This document shows positions 9,020 to 19,381 of a stretch of DNA of 24,000 nt, in pieces. Source of the DNA: Candidatus Micrarchaeota archaeon (GTDB lineage: Archaea; Micrarchaeota; Micrarchaeia; Micrarchaeales; CABMGC01); assembly GCA_030040265.1 (NCBI GenBank), contig JASHUB010000025.1:4271-28270 (forward strand), read 5' to 3'. The first letter of the stretch is position 1. The number at the start of each line of letters is the position of its first letter. The notes beneath the pieces are model-generated. The model was not told the origin of the DNA and ran no database searches. It worked only from the letters and a program-made list of their open reading frames with translations. Both the position numbers and the translations under genes were made by a program.

Positions 9020-9658
9020 GTGGTCCGTCTGGTGGATCGCAATTGGGAGCGTTTCTGGTCCAACAAGGAAACAATCAAGAGAGAGCCCCTCAAATGCATC
9101 GTCGAGCTCGTGCCGGTGCTGAAGAAGAGAGGGTCACGCACGGTGCTGGACCTGGGATGCGGATCCGGTCGCCACGTCGCCTACCTGGCCAAGAAAGGTT
9201 TCATGGCCGTTGGCCAGGACATATCAGCTAACGCACTCGCATTCGCATCTGAGTCATTGAGCAAGATGGGTGCAAGGAACTACGTACTGATCAATCATGA
9301 TGTCACAAGGCTGCCGTTCCCCGATTCCAGTTTCGATGCGGTGATAAGCACGAACGCCATACACCACAATCGGCTAAGGGATATAAACAGGGCGGTGCGC
9401 GAGATACGCCGGATCCTCAAGGACAGGGGCGTGCTCTTCGTCAACCTAACGTCGCGAAGAAAGGAGATGCGTGGCACAGGAAGGAGACTGGAGGCAGGTA
9501 CATATCTGACGCTGAGCGGGCCGGAGAGGGGCATGGTGCACCACCTATTCACAAGGCAGGAGATAAAAAGGACCTTCTCTGGCTTCAAGATTCTAAAACT
9601 CACGCCACCCAGCGAGAAGGACAGGCACTGGCTTTTGCTGGCAGAGAAGAAGGCATGA
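9020..9658 (+). CDS. Class I SAM-dependent methyltransferase
   Basis: Motif I VLDLGCGSGRH, plus the post-I acidic GQDIS and DAVISTNAIHH. GTG start directly abuts the upstream TAG (9017-9019), suggesting co-transcription with the HTH gene. Confidence 0.8.
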   Translation: MVRLVDRNWERFWSNKETIKREPLKCIVELVPVLKKRGSRTVLDLGCGSGRHVAYLAKKGFMAVGQDISANALAFASESLSKMGARNYVLINHDVTRLPFPDSSFDAVISTNAIHHNRLRDINRAVREIRRILKDRGVLFVNLTSRRKEMRGTGRRLEAGTYLTLSGPERGMVHHLFTRQEIKRTFSGFKILKLTPPSEKDRHWLLLAEKKA

Positions 9659-9670
9659 CAGCATCAGGGC

Positions 9671-11020
9671 TCAGTTTCTTGCAACCAGGCGAAGGAGCAC
9701 GTCTTTCGGTTGGTAAGCGACCAGGCTGGCAGCAACGAGGAAGTCGCTGTAGAGCCCTCCCTCTTCGTGCTCTCCAAGCAGTCTCCCCATGCCTTCGGCA
9801 AGCTTCTTGTCAGCGGCGGCCTCGAGCAGTTCTGCCACCGCTCCGCCGAGCTCGCTCAAGAACACGCCCTCTATGCGCTTGGCGCGTTCTTCAAGTCGCA
9901 TCTCATTCTTCCTGCCGGCAACCAGCTCTGACAGATTAGCTTCGGGGTGCTCTTCGGCCTGCCTGACCAGCCACATGTTGGCCTCTTGGAAGTCTGTAAA
10001 GAACCGGTAAGCATCTTGGGAGACGGACAGGTCGAGCCTCTGTTTCGATATGCGCTCTGCCGCGCTGAGCGCCAGGGACAAGAGCAGTTCGCCAGCCTGT
10101 ACCGCAGCGTAGTGCGCCACATCATCCGCTGCGATGATGCTCTGGAACGCCCTCTTCGCCTTGATCCTCATCTTCGCAAGCTCGTCATAATCTTCAGCGG
10201 AGGGTTCTGCCAGCACGCCTCTCCGCGTGCATTCAACCGAGTAATTGTAAAACGCGGACAGAGCAGCGAGCGTCTTGGCCCTGGCATCTCCGTCCAGACC
10301 GCTGATGACAAACTCCGTTCCATCGAGGCTTGCACCTGCGATTGCCGCTAGGTTGCCCATCCTTGCGAGCGACATCAATCGAATGATCCTGGTTGCTATG
10401 CTCTTTGCGGGTCCTGTCGGCACGCCCGCGCTGCCCTCAAGCACGCCGGCCAGCGACCTAGTCCTTCTTTCATGGGTGTCCTGTTCGCTTGTAAGGTCGA
10501 AAGGCAGGGCGCCTGGCTCACCAGGTTTGAACCCGCCTATGAAATCTCCAAGCCAATGGTTCATTATGTTCCAGAAAACCTCATCATCGGCAACAGTCGC
10601 GCCTTCCAGCGGACGCGATAGGTCGTACTCAACCGTCCTATCCTTGAGCATCGCAATCAGGTTGCGCAGACTCCTCTGGGTAGCGCCAACTAAGTCAAAC
10701 TCAGCGGACATACTAAGCTTCTCAAATTCCTCCTGGGGGTCGTAGCCGGTCTCGGCGGCATAGTCCTTGGCTGCCATGTCGAACGCAGCCCTGGCGGACT
10801 TGTCCCCCAAGCTCCTAGACACCATATGGAGGAAGAAGGGCGCCACGCGACCAGACACTATCGCTGTGTACCGCATCACGCTGCTGCTGTACGCACCGCC
10901 TGCCTGCCCTATCGCGTTAGTGAAGGTCGTTTGCATGCCTCTGCGGTCCCCGGACACTTCTGCGAAGTACCTCTCGCTCGTGCTTAGGAAGCCCTGCGCG
11001 TGCTGGGTTTTATGTTCCAT
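9671..11020 (-). CDS. Orphan hypothetical protein (~449 aa), Ala/Leu/Glu-rich, predicted soluble
   Basis: Long ORF with host-like codon usage. The track start is GTG 11077. ATG 11020 has TTATTAAT (reverse complement of 11048-11055) about 30 nt upstream. No motif or family recognised. Confidence 0.6.
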   Translation of the reverse strand: MEHKTQHAQGFLSTSERYFAEVSGDRRGMQTTFTNAIGQAGGAYSSSVMRYTAIVSGRVAPFFLHMVSRSLGDKSARAAFDMAAKDYAAETGYDPQEEFEKLSMSAEFDLVGATQRSLRNLIAMLKDRTVEYDLSRPLEGATVADDEVFWNIMNHWLGDFIGGFKPGEPGALPFDLTSEQDTHERRTRSLAGVLEGSAGVPTGPAKSIATRIIRLMSLARMGNLAAIAGASLDGTEFVISGLDGDARAKTLAALSAFYNYSVECTRRGVLAEPSAEDYDELAKMRIKAKRAFQSIIAADDVAHYAAVQAGELLLSLALSAAERISKQRLDLSVSQDAYRFFTDFQEANMWLVRQAEEHPEANLSELVAGRKNEMRLEERAKRIEGVFLSELGGAVAELLEAAADKKLAEGMGRLLGEHEEGGLYSDFLVAASLVAYQPKDVLLRLVARN

Positions 11021-11110
11021 CAAATCACAACATCTGCATACGCCCTCATTAATAAGCGTTTGCCCGATGTGACGCACGATGTCGAACCTACCTGCACGAA
11101 ATCGGGAACG

Positions 11111-11118
11111 TTTTTAAG
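11111..11118 (+). promoter_or_regulatory. TATA-like element (TTTTTAAG) upstream of nac
   Basis: Lies about 25-35 nt upstream of the cluster of ATGs at 11139, 11148 and 11151. Confidence 0.4.
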
Positions 11119-11138
11119 TGTGGGGCTACAAATGGTAA

Positions 11139-11486
11139 ATGACTTTTATGATGCCGAACATGGACCCGAGAGCCCTAAAGCGCATGATGGAGAGCATGGG
11201 CATAAAGCAGACCGAGATAGACGCTGACCGGGTCATAATCCAGTGCAAGGACAAGAACATAGTCATAGAGTCGCCCAGCGTCACTGCGATAGACGCGCAG
11301 GGCGCGAGAACATTCCAGGTGAGCGGCAGCATAAGCGAGCAGAGCACCGTCAAGGTCGAGATAAGCGATGACGACGTCGCGACAGTCGCGTCGCAGACCG
11401 GTGTTGACAACGATGCGGCAAGGTCGGCGCTCGAGGAGGCGAACGGCGACATCGCAGAAGCGATAATGAAGCTGAAGGGAAGCTAA
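11139..11486 (+). CDS. nac: Nascent polypeptide-associated complex protein (archaeal NAC alpha: NAC + UBA domains)
   Basis: MDPRALKRMMESMGIKQTEI..VIIQ..IVIESPSVTAI.AQG..TFQV is the NAC domain. The C-terminal DDDVATVASQTGVDNDAARSALEEANGDIAEAIMKL is the UBA domain. The true start may be ATG 11148 or 11151. Confidence 0.9.
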   Translation: MTFMMPNMDPRALKRMMESMGIKQTEIDADRVIIQCKDKNIVIESPSVTAIDAQGARTFQVSGSISEQSTVKVEISDDDVATVASQTGVDNDAARSALEEANGDIAEAIMKLKGS

Positions 11487-13461: not shown

Positions 13462-13585
13462 GCCAGGGTGGCAGAATCCGGTAACGCGCCGGTCTCGAGT
13501 TTGCAAAACATCGAGAGCTGATTTGTGATGCAACAGGCAAACCGGTGCCCGCAAGGGCTTTAGGGTTCAAATCCCTACCCTGGCG
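13462..13585 (+). tRNA. tRNA-Ser (anticodon CGA), class II, with a 40-nt intron after position 37
   Basis: Folded by hand. The acceptor GCCAGGG pairs with CCCTGGC, with discriminator G. Anticodon stem CCGGT/ACCGG, loop CU-CGA-G[intron]A. Long variable arm TGCCCGCAAGGGCTT. T arm TAGGG-TTCAAAT-CCCTA. The intron contains TCGAGA, complementary to the anticodon-loop TCTCGA. Caveat: the D stem has an A12:C23 mismatch. Confidence 0.85.
13500..13539 (+). other. tRNA intron (canonical 37/38 position), presumably bulge-helix-bulge type
   Basis: Removing 13500-13539 restores the anticodon stem-loop and gives an 84-nt mature tRNA. The internal stem TTGCA...TGCAA and pairing with the anticodon loop are visible. 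The exact BHB geometry was not verified. Confidence 0.7.
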
Positions 13586-13588
13586 AAC
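13574..13588 (+). repeat. Left copy of 15-nt direct repeat CCTACCCTGGCGAAC (att-like; last 12 nt of tRNA-Ser + 3 nt)
   Basis: Exact match to 14153-14167. Confidence 0.9.
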
Positions 13589-13590
13589 TT

Positions 13591-13829
13591 CTAAAGGTAT
13601 TTTCCAGCTTTTGACGTATAGGATGCGGTTATGACAAATACCGCCCCGTCAAGTCGAAGAAAGATAACTACGACAATCCTTCGTTAGGCAGCCTTTTTGT
13701 CGCAGAGAACTCGCCTTTGCCTCTAGCAAGAACCTTGTTCGGACCTATAAGGGCATTCTCCACTTCCTATCTAGATATTCCTCGTTCAAGCATTCGCTGC
13801 AGGGAATGCTTAGAAAAAGTGATAATCAT
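13591..13829 (-). pseudogene. DUF4258-family toxin pseudogene (premature TAG + one frameshift)
   Basis: The ATG (13829-13827) overlaps the TGA of the upstream DUF2283 gene as ATGA. Frame A reads MIITFSKHSLQRMLERGISR*EVENALIGPNKVLARGKGEFSATKRLPNEGLS*, with the TAG at 13769-13767. The family-like C-terminus RRIVVVIFLRLDGAVFVITASYTSKAGKYL* continues in another frame from about 13683 to the stop at 13593-13591. The total span of 239 nt is not a multiple of 3. Matches the DUF4258 pattern (f..HA..Rm.eRgIs..ev...l......vvv......viTvY). Confidence 0.7.
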
Positions 13830-14071
13830 CTGCTTACCGCTATGTTGGTCAGCACTCTGGAAAGTATCGCGTTCAGGTTGACGTTTGCTTTTGAGAATCC
13901 GAGGATCTCTATCCCAATTACTCTATTATGGTTGTCTCTGTCCAAAAGGACTCCTTTTCCGACCTCAACAGTATCCTGCACCTTGCCATTGCGGATTCGG
14001 ATATAAGCCGCATCCACCTGCCGGTCGTACTCAAGAACATACTTTTCGGTCTTTGAATGCCTTTTCTCCAT
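13826..14071 (-). CDS. DUF2283-family protein (putative antitoxin)
   Basis: YVLEYDRQVDAAYIRIRNGKVQDTVEVGKGVLLDRDNHNRVIGIEILGFSK matches the DUF2283 signature (YD.e.DalYI.l....v......g.vlD.d..g.ivGIEIL.aS). ATG 14071 is preferred over the track TTG 14098. CTTTAAAT (reverse complement of 14104-14111) lies about 35 nt upstream. Confidence 0.8.
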   Translation of the reverse strand: MEKRHSKTEKYVLEYDRQVDAAYIRIRNGKVQDTVEVGKGVLLDRDNHNRVIGIEILGFSKANVNLNAILSRVLTNIAVSR

Positions 14072-14152
14072 GGCTCTCAACCATATCTTCACCAGCAATC
14101 GAGATTTAAAGCCTTATCTGTGAATCGCAGATCTATGGCCGTTCAGAGTCGT

Positions 14153-14167
14153 CCTACCCTGGCGAAC
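14153..14167 (+). repeat. Right copy of 15-nt direct repeat CCTACCCTGGCGAAC (att-like)
   Basis: Exact match to 13574-13588. It overlaps the last four codons and the stop codon of the minus-strand DHOD-like gene. Confidence 0.9.
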
Positions 14168-15398
14168 GCTTCTCGCCTGTCGAAGAAGGCATGGTCTCGC
14201 CCTTCCTGGCGAGTTCCTTCACTTCCGCTTGGAGCTCCTCCATCGTCTTGCCGTCCCTCTCGAGATGCTCGGAGAGCTGCCTCATTATCCTGGGCGCCTG
14301 CCCGAAGCCGTATCTCGCATAGACCGTGAAGCCTGCTATGCTGTTGGCGCCTGTTTTGAAGGCATCGTAGCCGACGTGGCCATCGAATATCCCTCCCTCA
14401 GCTGTTATGTCCGCCTCTGGAAACGCGAGCCGTATGTCGCGCACGCTCCTCAGCATGTACCCGGTCAAGAACGCGCCGCTCCTTCCTGCGGTCGGGTAGC
14501 CCCAACTGCCGCGCACCTCTGCTGGCAGCTGGTCTTTCGGCACCTTGAACGTGTTCGTCGTCACGACTCCGTGCCCTCCGCCGTCAAGGAACGCCTTGAC
14601 GAGCGCGAGCATCGCATCGCGTCCGGATGGCTCGTACGGGCCTATCTTCATGAGCCTGAGCTTGTGCGGCACAAGCTGCTTCATCAACACAGCGGTCTGG
14701 CGATACGCCTCCTCCGTCTGCAGCAGCGGCAGATCTGCCGTGTTCGGCGACCAGCGGTTGTCTATGTAACCTGAAACGTACGGGTATGTCTGGTGGATCA
14801 GGTCCTCGGTCTGCGCAAGCGCGGAGCCTACCGGATCCTTCTTGTCTGTAGGCAGGCCCGCTATGCTGAGCAATATCTCCGACTTTCCCCCTGCCCCGTA
14901 TTCACGAAGCCTGTCAACGACGTAAGCCAGCCCTTCGCTGGGGAAACCCTGCGCATTGTACAGGTCGACGCCGTCGTTCGCCGACACGACCCTGACCCGA
15001 TCGTTTCCCTTCCTCGGCTCGACGACCACGGTCCCTGGCTGCTGTACATCGAAGTAATGGTCGAGCACCAGCGGGACGTCGAAATTCTTGTCCAGGCCTT
15101 CTGCGGGTTTCACCGGGGCCACCTTCCTCGGAAGTCCGGGCATCTTCACCATCATGTTCTTTGGAGGATCGAATTTCGGGAGCACGAGTCCGGCGATGCC
15201 CTGGTACCTGCGGACCACGTCCTTGACCAGCTCCTGGACGGTCTCGGCGTCGCCTCCGCAGATCTCATAGAGTCTGGGTCTTACCACATCCTTGAAATAG
15301 TCCGGATCGTTTGCGCCCTTCTGGAGCATCATCTTCTCTCTCAGCGAGATGGCCGGCAGCTGCGGCTTTGCGTGCGCAGCTGCTCCACTTGCCCCCAA
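14154..15398 (-). CDS. Dihydroorotate dehydrogenase-family (class 2-like) FMN oxidoreductase with an N-terminal extension
   Basis: PyrD-like motifs in order: EPRKGNDRVRV, YNAQGFPSEG (N.xGF.N.G), LSIAG, NRWSPNT (N.SSPNT), KIGPY (KIAPD), GVVTTNT and AEGGIFDG. The start is ambiguous: TTG 15398 (track) or ATG 15332. Confidence 0.6.
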   Translation of the reverse strand: MGASGAAAHAKPQLPAISLREKMMLQKGANDPDYFKDVVRPRLYEICGGDAETVQELVKDVVRRYQGIAGLVLPKFDPPKNMMVKMPGLPRKVAPVKPAEGLDKNFDVPLVLDHYFDVQQPGTVVVEPRKGNDRVRVVSANDGVDLYNAQGFPSEGLAYVVDRLREYGAGGKSEILLSIAGLPTDKKDPVGSALAQTEDLIHQTYPYVSGYIDNRWSPNTADLPLLQTEEAYRQTAVLMKQLVPHKLRLMKIGPYEPSGRDAMLALVKAFLDGGGHGVVTTNTFKVPKDQLPAEVRGSWGYPTAGRSGAFLTGYMLRSVRDIRLAFPEADITAEGGIFDGHVGYDAFKTGANSIAGFTVYARYGFGQAPRIMRQLSEHLERDGKTMEELQAEVKELARKGETMPSSTGEKRSPG

Positions 15399-18570: not shown

Positions 18571-18596
18571 CTCCTAGTGAGTTCAGGTGATTGTGG

Positions 18597-19319
18597 ATGT
18601 TCAAGGATATCAAAGCGCAGATGGCTCACGTTAGGAGTTTTCGGAGAAAAACCCTGGTGCCATCGCAAGATGAACTCTTATGGGAACTGTTTGGAGTTTG
18701 CTTAGGCGACGGTTGCTTATCTCGGTGCTTTAACAGAACGACAGGCTACACGATGAATTTTACTATCTTCACAGGAAATGGGAAGGATGATTTTGAATAT
18801 TATACTACCTACCTAGCTCCTAGCCTAAGATCCAAATTTAACATCAAAGTTACTCCGTATCTCCGAAAAGATTCCAATTCGATAGCCATTCGCATAAATA
18901 ATCAAAGTGTATTTTATTCTTTCAAGAAGCTCGGCATGCCCATAGGTAAGAAAAAGGAGAAGATTGAGATCCCTCCAATAATGTTCAAAAAACCTAAGAG
19001 AGTCAAGGCAGCAGTGTTAAGAGGCCTTCTTGATACGGATGGGTGTATTTTCGCAAGAAGAGATGAGGCTTATAAATATCTACACATAAAGATAACAAGT
19101 GCAAATGAATCTTTCTTATATCAAATAAAGAAATTAATGGGCGACTTCAATTTGCCGGCATATGTCCATTGGCAAGGCAGGCACGGAGGCGACGTGATAG
19201 TAAGAGGAAATAGTAATATAAAGCGTTGGATGGCATTAATAGGAACATCACACCCACTGATAAAACAGAGATATATCGGATGGCTGGATAAAGGAGTTCT
19301 CTTACCTAAGGGCTCGTAG
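18597..19319 (+). CDS. Free-standing double-motif LAGLIDADG homing endonuclease
   Basis: Two LAGLIDADG motifs, ELFGVCLGDGC and LRGLLDTDGC, both retaining the terminal acidic residue, in a ~240-aa protein. SD-like GGTGA lies 7 nt upstream of ATG 18597. Markedly AT-rich versus the flanks. The TAG stop (19317-19319) lies inside tRNA-Ala. Confidence 0.85.
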   Translation: MFKDIKAQMAHVRSFRRKTLVPSQDELLWELFGVCLGDGCLSRCFNRTTGYTMNFTIFTGNGKDDFEYYTTYLAPSLRSKFNIKVTPYLRKDSNSIAIRINNQSVFYSFKKLGMPIGKKKEKIEIPPIMFKKPKRVKAAVLRGLLDTDGCIFARRDEAYKYLHIKITSANESFLYQIKKLMGDFNLPAYVHWQGRHGGDVIVRGNSNIKRWMALIGTSHPLIKQRYIGWLDKGVLLPKGS

Positions 19320-19381
19320 CGCAGTGGTAGCGCACATCGTTCGCAACGATGGGGTCGCGGGTTCGAATCCCGCCGAGTCCA
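19310..19381 (+). tRNA. tRNA-Ala (anticodon CGC)
   Basis: Hand-folded 72-nt cloverleaf. Acceptor GGGCTCG/CGAGTCC with the G3:U70 Ala identity pair. D arm GCGC-AGTGGTA-GCGC. Anticodon arm CATCG-TTCGCAA-CGATG. T arm GCGGG-TTCGAAT-CCCGC. Discriminator A. Confidence 0.9.

Follow-up and report, generated by a model that had tools for sequence, protein, structure and literature searches.

Integrated elements of the Sulfolobales and Thermococcales are bordered by partial repeats of a tRNA gene and can undergo 'gene capture' after the integrase is lost, and casposons leave target duplications of 14-15 bp at the 3' ends of tRNA genes. Cis-mobilizable elements (CIMEs), which derive from streptococcal integrative and conjugative elements (ICEs) or integrative and mobilizable elements (IMEs), keep both attachment sites, attL and attR, but have lost the genes for integration and transfer (PMC5704250). 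DUF4258 is a type II toxin family of the RelE/ParE superfamily, encoded in antitoxin-toxin order and with its target listed as unknown (PMC11980606). Here we describe a locus in a 24,000-nucleotide stretch of DNA ('the window') from a Candidatus Micrarchaeota archaeon (assembly GCA_030040265.1, contig JASHUB010000025.1, positions 4,271 to 28,270), in which an islet of 564 bp, holding a DUF2283 antitoxin gene and a DUF4258 toxin gene alone, is bracketed by a direct repeat of the 3' end of tRNA-Ser(CGA). On balance, we read the islet as an integrase-less, CIME-like remnant of a mobile element that integrated site-specifically at this tRNA end.

Comparison with described systems

The islet fits the description of a CIME in that its att sites are retained while the genes for integration and transfer are gone; again like a CIME, it has direct repeats taken from the 3' end of a tRNA gene and a small cargo. 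It differs in its archaeal (Micrarchaeota) host, in its far smaller size (564 bp), in having no known parent ICE or IME and no known helper, and in the absence of tandem accretion in the window. With the archaeal tRNA-integrated elements it shares a far border that repeats part of the tRNA, and a probable history of decay following integration. Its identity block, however, is confined to 12-15 nt at the very 3' terminus, against about 40-60 nt in those elements, and whereas SSV-type elements carry split integrase fragments at both borders, the islet carries none.

Casposons are similar in the length of the duplication and the position of the target, but the islet lacks Cas1, a polymerase and terminal inverted repeats (none were found at its ends, which separates it from inverted-repeat transposons in general), and the length of the duplication varies among related islets. 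Nor does it look like an integron-type cassette: the four islets of this kind that we compare below share no attC-like arm (p > 0.18). The cargo resembles type II toxin-antitoxin (TA) systems of the RelE/ParE kind in its bicistronic antitoxin-toxin order, its ATGA stop/start overlap and its DUF4258 toxin domain. It departs from them in that a frameshift and an in-frame nonsense codon have disabled the toxin gene, and its TA role is a prediction from sequence. We found no description of DUF2283 paired with DUF4258 in the literature searched. The event is of a known kind; the islet is an archaeal tRNA-integrated element of unusually small size whose cargo is a DUF2283/DUF4258 module.

The direct repeat and its target

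The target gene, tRNA-Ser(CGA), lies at 13462-13585 on the plus strand (Rfam RF00005, 38.9 bits; ARAGORN with the -i option) and forms the attB side of attL. A default tRNA scan misses it because it contains an intron of 40 nt (13500-13539) at the canonical position 37/38; on the spliced sequence ARAGORN reports an 84-nt tRNA-Ser(cga). A label of tRNA-Ala(cgc), also given by ARAGORN, was rejected since the variable arm is long and the intron lies where it canonically does, both of which point to Ser(CGA).

The exact 15-mer CCTACCCTGGCGAAC occurs at two positions of the window, both on the plus strand. The left copy (attL core, 13574-13588) consists of the last 12 nt of the tRNA and the trailer AAC, and the right copy (attR core) is at 14153-14167. 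The repeat is exactly 15 nt long, the preceding base being c at one copy and t at the other. An earlier note on this DNA, made from its letters without database searches, had described a perfect 15-nt repeat of the tRNA-Ser 3' end, and this was confirmed; its remark that a TTCT also matches after a 2-nt gap was not, since that match is no better than chance and depends on an indel. There is no third copy in the window even when 2 mismatches are allowed, and two or more matches were seen in 0/100 shuffled windows. As a caveat, three 15-mers recur exactly in the window, against an expectation of about 0.3, so the mere repetition of a 15-mer is not decisive. The repeat carries weight because one copy is the terminus of a tRNA, the other lies in direct orientation 579 bp downstream, and the two bracket a distinct segment.

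On its right side the repeat doubles as the end of a convergent host gene. This DHOD-like gene (PF01180, Pfam 8.3e-13; 14154-15398, minus strand) ends in ...EKRSPG-TAG, and the right repeat, read on the minus strand, holds two-thirds of the Arg codon, the Ser-Pro-Gly codons and the TAG stop (14156-14154). The earlier note was thus correct in assigning the last codons and the stop of the gene to the repeat. Might the 15-mer then be explained by a conserved C-terminus, as the note itself had asked? Homologs of the DHOD-like protein are at most 46% identical and their C-terminal tails are not conserved, so the 15-mer is not a conserved coding motif. Three of them (P0001, P0003 and P0010, 41-44% identical) show no shared synteny and have no tRNA-Ser nearby. 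In an alignment scan of the genome collection with the DHOD-like gene, bacterial DHOD genes took up the patterns, and only a single, distant archaeal locus was returned.

The toxin-antitoxin cassette

All features of the 564-bp segment between the repeats are on the minus strand. Its GC content is 0.452, compared with 0.606 for the DHOD-like gene, 0.556 for the whole window and 52% for the glycosyltransferase gene on the left, which bears out by full count the AT-richness first noticed from a few lines of sequence. The antitoxin gene (13826-14071) is intact and encodes a DUF2283 protein of 81 aa (PF10049, 6.7e-16). About 36 nt upstream of its ATG, at 14105-14110 on the minus strand, a TATA-like box TTTAAA can be read in the sequence and is a putative promoter.

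The toxin gene (13591-13829) follows in the same operon, its ATG overlapping the antitoxin stop (ATGA), and is a pseudogene of the DUF4258 (RelE/ParE-superfamily) type. It was recognized by three-frame translation and matches Pfam only once the frames are stitched together (PF14076, 2.2e-7). Two lesions account for this, an in-frame TAG at 13769-13767 and a deletion of 1 nt near 13680; aligned to the copy in the relative L086, described below, the gene has 239 nt against 240. The intact toxin frame of a type II TA system is therefore missing here, and the L086 toxin carries a different in-frame TAG. Of the two-gene TA cassette proposed earlier, the antitoxin half stands as described and the toxin half stands only as a disrupted gene. 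Neither TA protein had a match in NCBIfam.

Apart from the TA pair there are no ORF fragments between the repeats, and since the toxin stop codon (13593-13591) is 2 nt from the left repeat there is no space for a further gene on that side. That the islet is filled by the TA pair and has no recombinase had also been claimed before, and agrees with what we find.

Relatives of the locus and the ancestral neighbor

The genes of the window are of archaeal type (among them TFB, NAC, Nop and aIF-2B), and the glycosyltransferase places the window in the Micrarchaeota. The antitoxin has a sole relative in the protein collection, P0050, which is 77% identical and lies on contig L086. The cassette family is very rare, a word-index search having given 2 proteins among only 4 candidates. 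Nucleotide identity between L086 and the window is 68-82% in shared genes. The cassette, too, is found in L086 beside this tRNA-Ser: the tRNA exons do not differ, the cassettes are 75% identical in nucleotides, the toxin stop lies 5 nt from the tRNA end in both, and a TTTTAAA stands at a similar distance upstream of the antitoxin. The BLAST match between the two stops at 14071; shared synteny ends near the right repeat, and the genes further to the right differ.

Outgroups show the locus without the islet. In three contigs (L089, L090 and L091), whose glycosyltransferase is 56% identical to that of the window, TruD is convergent on the orthologous tRNA-Ser(CGA) and is followed by GT2; the gap between TruD and the tRNA is 1-66 nt and contains neither a TA pair nor any other islet. 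TruD is found on that side in seven related contigs. Since the outgroups have TruD next to tRNA-Ser and lack the TA pair, the comparison indicates that the cassette is an insertion specific to the clade of the window and L086, and that the ancestral right neighbor of tRNA-Ser is TruD and not the DHOD-like gene.

These comparisons bear on several expectations of the earlier note. It had reckoned a single arrangement in all relatives as evidence against integration, and the three outgroups without the islet show that the arrangement varies. The empty site that it envisaged, a direct junction of tRNA-Ser and the DHOD-like gene, did not turn up: the predicted junction (...TCAAATCCCTACCCTGGCGAACGCTTCTCGCC...) had 0 exact matches in metagenomes, and synteny in the seven related contigs puts TruD where the DHOD-like gene was expected. 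Its corollary, that a gene would end antisense inside the tRNA-Ser, fared better as geometry than as a statement about this gene. In contig L130 a convergent ORF of 562 aa does end at a TAG inside an uninterrupted tRNA, but an empty site joining the tRNA to the DHOD-like gene is the part for which no example was found.

Some further observations on L086 may be recorded here. At 9897-9911 of that contig the reverse complement CCTATCCTTATACTT matches 7/8 of the first nucleotides of the repeat; it lies 89 nt upstream of the DUF2283 ATG, as compared with 81 nt for the repeat in the window, and to judge from this position may be a decayed attR (P of about 0.01 by our own estimate). L086 also has an additional ORF of 139 aa between tRNA-Ser and the glycosyltransferase. 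Finally, there is a local rearrangement between window 9020-11486 and L086 14404-17483: a methyltransferase gene and a gene for a 468-aa protein lie between HTH_3 and NAC in the window and on the far side of NAC in L086.

The same geometry at other tRNA-Ser loci

A scan of metagenomes with the last 26 nt of the tRNA gave 85 contigs. Additional copies of CCTACCCTGGCG with at most one mismatch were found in these in one arrangement only: 3 were downstream and in direct orientation, 0 upstream and 0 on the opposite strand. In L095 an exact 12-mer recurs 620 nt downstream and the islet encodes a MazE-type antitoxin paired with a ParE/RelE toxin; a convergent gene with a PEP-utilizing domain ends APG-TAG within the repeat. 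In L103, a Micrarchaeota relative, a 13-nt repeat lies 465 nt downstream, the islet is a single GNAT gene, and the right neighbor is TruD, which ends NSPG-TAG inside the repeat. At its left contig end L103 has a candidate N-terminus of the glycosyltransferase. In L100 the repeat has 22 nt and the islet is 3.4 kb long, with genes that have no Pfam matches. The four repeats, including that of the window, start at the same tRNA base to within 1 nt and reach to a variable extent into the trailer, giving lengths of 12-22 nt. All these islets are lower in GC than their flanks.

For one of them an empty counterpart exists. In L119 the tRNA is followed directly by the same PEP-utilizing-domain gene as in L095; the BLAST segments of the two contigs overlap by exactly the 12-nt repeat, and the flanks are about 77% identical. 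This is the only true occupied/empty pair, the outgroups of the window being empty but with TruD as the right flank.

The earlier interpretation of the locus as attL/attR geometry at the tRNA-Ser 3' end is thus strengthened, both by the outgroups that lack the islet and by three other islets with the same left boundary. Two features that mark an integrated element are present: the repeat is the 3' part of an intact tRNA gene, and the segment is of foreign composition, carries accessory cargo and is absent from L089, L090 and L091. An element-encoded integrase is a feature that the islet does not have.

Searches for more extended likeness were negative. The DNA to the left of attR was considered as a decayed copy of the tRNA T-loop or an integrase-binding arm, and this was rejected as its alignment score was not significant against shuffles. 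The attR-adjacent arms of the four islets showed no likeness beyond that of shuffled sequences, whether pairwise or to the tRNA arm (p > 0.18). In viral contigs the att core had 0 matches as a 17-mer and 3 as a 16-mer, all of them at non-tRNA positions in phage-like contigs and so attributable to chance; no parent element for the islet was found in this way.

Other contigs of the scan have further DNA after the tRNA. In L116 just ~42 nt from the 3' end of a tRNA-Ser are present, and after them comes a flank that is seen behind complete tRNAs in L121, L122 and L174; in L174 an ORF that might be the start of an integrase begins 22 nt past the tRNA and runs off the contig. By the layout of their sequences, these four contigs seem to represent another family of elements, one whose att site at tRNA-Ser is longer. 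In L134 and L159 (26-478 nt after the tRNA) there is in each an apparent GNAT gene of 150 aa, and in L092 (58-689 nt after the tRNA) a winged-helix-turn-helix-like ORF and an ORF of 121 aa, possibly a toxin; these were judged by eye, and no repeat was detectable in any of the three.

Age of the islet and its probable origin

Is the islet as old as its cargo? The antitoxins of the window and L086 differ by a dN of 0.14 and a dS of 1.15 (dN/dS ~0.12), and in the conserved, alignable ends of the toxin pN is 0.05-0.20 against a pS of 0.57-0.83. The low dN/dS and the paucity of non-synonymous changes in the toxin indicate that the TA pair has been functional and under purifying selection for most of the divergence. 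The in-frame TAGs of the two toxins (window 13767-13769, L086 about 10291-10293) are four codons apart, and the neighboring codons are under purifying selection; judging by these positions, the toxin was probably inactivated independently in the two lineages. Neutral sites between window and L086 are saturated (dS about 1.15). A repeat that is nonetheless perfect (15/15) suggests a younger event in the window lineage, and the comparison favors a re-integration, a separate acquisition or a rearrangement by which the right repeat was renewed.

We propose that a mobile element integrated site-specifically into the extreme 3' end of tRNA-Ser(CGA), most likely by means of a tyrosine recombinase. 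The crossover or identity block would run from CCTACCC at the T-stem/acceptor junction through the discriminator base and into the trailer. Its duplication would have produced attL (13574-13588) and attR (14153-14167), and would have kept whole both the tRNA and the convergent gene that ends in the block. The integrase and other genes would then have been lost, leaving an addiction module (DUF2283 and DUF4258) with its own TATA-type promoter. Such a remnant might survive because the TA pair resists its own loss while strong deletion pressure strips away the rest, and with the toxin recently knocked out the cassette would now be decaying. Of all this, the repeat and its match to the tRNA terminus, the genes of the islet, the lack of an islet in outgroups and the return of this geometry with other cargo are observed; the recombinase type, the larger ancestral element and the role of TA addiction in survival are what we infer from the present form of the locus.

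Alternative explanations

Several findings weigh against a remnant of this kind. There is no recombinase in the islet and no Phage_integrase match in the 26 window ORFs scanned; no integrase was recognized beside the tRNA in the 85 contigs, as inspected by eye and by motif only; and no larger occupied variant of the window's element was found. L086 lacks a second copy of the tRNA end, and its right flank consists of two small ORFs and TruD, with no DHOD-like gene. If integration preceded the split from L086, a perfect 15/15 repeat would be unlikely, with a chance of ~1% by a rough estimate of ours that grants full protein-level constraint on the DHOD tail, the repeat including the non-functional 3-nt trailer. 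The islets are, moreover, free of gene debris, which is less natural under gradual random deletion than under cassette-like mobility. In another account, the islet is a minimal cargo that is active or was so until recently: a circle of ~580 bp made up of the TA cassette and one att core, served in trans by a recombinase from another element, from the chromosome or from the episymbiont's host, usually one of the Thermoplasmatales, and belonging with other modules of cassette size whose common site is the tRNA-Ser 3' end. The predicted circle junction is ..CAGAGTCGT-CCTACCCTGGCGAAC-TTCTAAAGG.., i.e. ...GTTCAGAGTCGTCCTACCCTGGCGAACTTCTAAAGGTATT.... Such a cargo would explain why the repeat is perfect, non-functional trailer AAC included, in spite of saturated neutral sites, and it agrees with three compact, debris-free islets that have different single modules (this TA pair, MazE/ParE and GNAT) at the same core in different genomes, with the occupied/empty pair L095/L119, and with the fact that the window and L086, whose right flanks differ, both carry the cassette 5 nt from the tRNA end. 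We nevertheless regard it as less likely than a remnant. No recombinase was identified in any searched DNA, L095 and L119, with flanks only ~77% identical, need not record a recent gain or loss, and three points speak for a remnant instead: the toxin of the window is dead, with two lesions; the islet ends have no conserved arm or attC-like motif, all comparisons giving p > 0.18; and the cassette family is very rare in the word-index search. A generalization of the same idea is somewhat less probable still, namely that Micrarchaeota, and perhaps other archaea with this tRNA-Ser 3' end, have a class of integrase-less modules of 0.45-0.6 kb, each with one TA pair or one GNAT gene, that are moved in trans at a fixed crossover in tRNA-Ser. 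Anchored at a tRNA, such modules would be the archaeal counterpart to CIMEs or integron cassettes, and the repeat would double as the 3' end of the convergent gene.

Alternatively the islet could be older than the split from L086, a later rearrangement in the window lineage having supplied both the perfect right repeat and the DHOD-like flank. An old attR would have recombined, through an integrase or through short homology, with the identical 3' end of another tRNA-Ser overlapped by the DHOD-like gene, so that TruD was exchanged for DHOD and the repeat refreshed; this is partly compatible with either a remnant or mobilization in trans. Synteny with L086 does end near the right repeat, with TruD there in seven related contigs, the tRNA-Ser isoacceptors CGA and UGA have an identical 26-nt 3' end, and the 7/8 match to the start of the repeat in L086 is at the position expected for attR. 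Inversions driven by integrases between tRNA-like sites are documented for the Thermococcales (PMC5495485). The second tRNA-Ser locus is hypothetical, however, and the identity of the trailer AAC would have to be a coincidence, so that we think this course of events improbable. Least probable by far is that the repeat is the target-site duplication of a transposition-type, casposon-like insertion, or a product of chance or coding. Its 15 bp and its position at a tRNA 3' end do recall casposon duplications, and two other exact 15-mer repeats exist in the window. Against transposition stand the lack of terminal inverted repeats at the islet ends, of Cas1 and of a transposase, as well as a repeat that varies from 12 to 22 nt among islets while its left boundary is fixed; chance is excluded by the shuffled windows and by recurrence in the 85-contig scan, and coding by the unconserved DHOD tails.

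Other features of the window

Two features elsewhere in the window deserve mention. At 18591-19381 there is an ORF of 242 aa whose product has a LAGLIDADG_3 domain (Pfam 4.6e-10) and whose end reaches 10 nt into tRNA-Ala(CGC) (19310-19381); its domain and position suggest a homing-endonuclease-like gene, free-standing and adjoining a tRNA. At 2386-2540, the 3' end of a radical-SAM/HMPTM-zinc-ribbon ORF (393-2537) has tandem Cys/Gly-rich repeats (TGCGGATGCGGC units).

Significance

The mobile elements of DPANN archaea such as the Micrarchaeota are poorly known, and the islet documents an integration scar together with a TA addiction module in this group, in which insertions recur, and synteny breaks, at the tRNA-Ser 3' end. 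The islet also offers a clean case of an att duplication that saves two overlapping convergent genes, one for a tRNA and one for a protein, in a very compact genome. Most worth following up is that islets of cassette size recur at one tRNA core in DPANN archaea. If these islets are remnants, they are ordinary genome archaeology; if they are mobilized in trans, there would be a recombinase yet to be named and a cassette-like exchange of genes among episymbionts.

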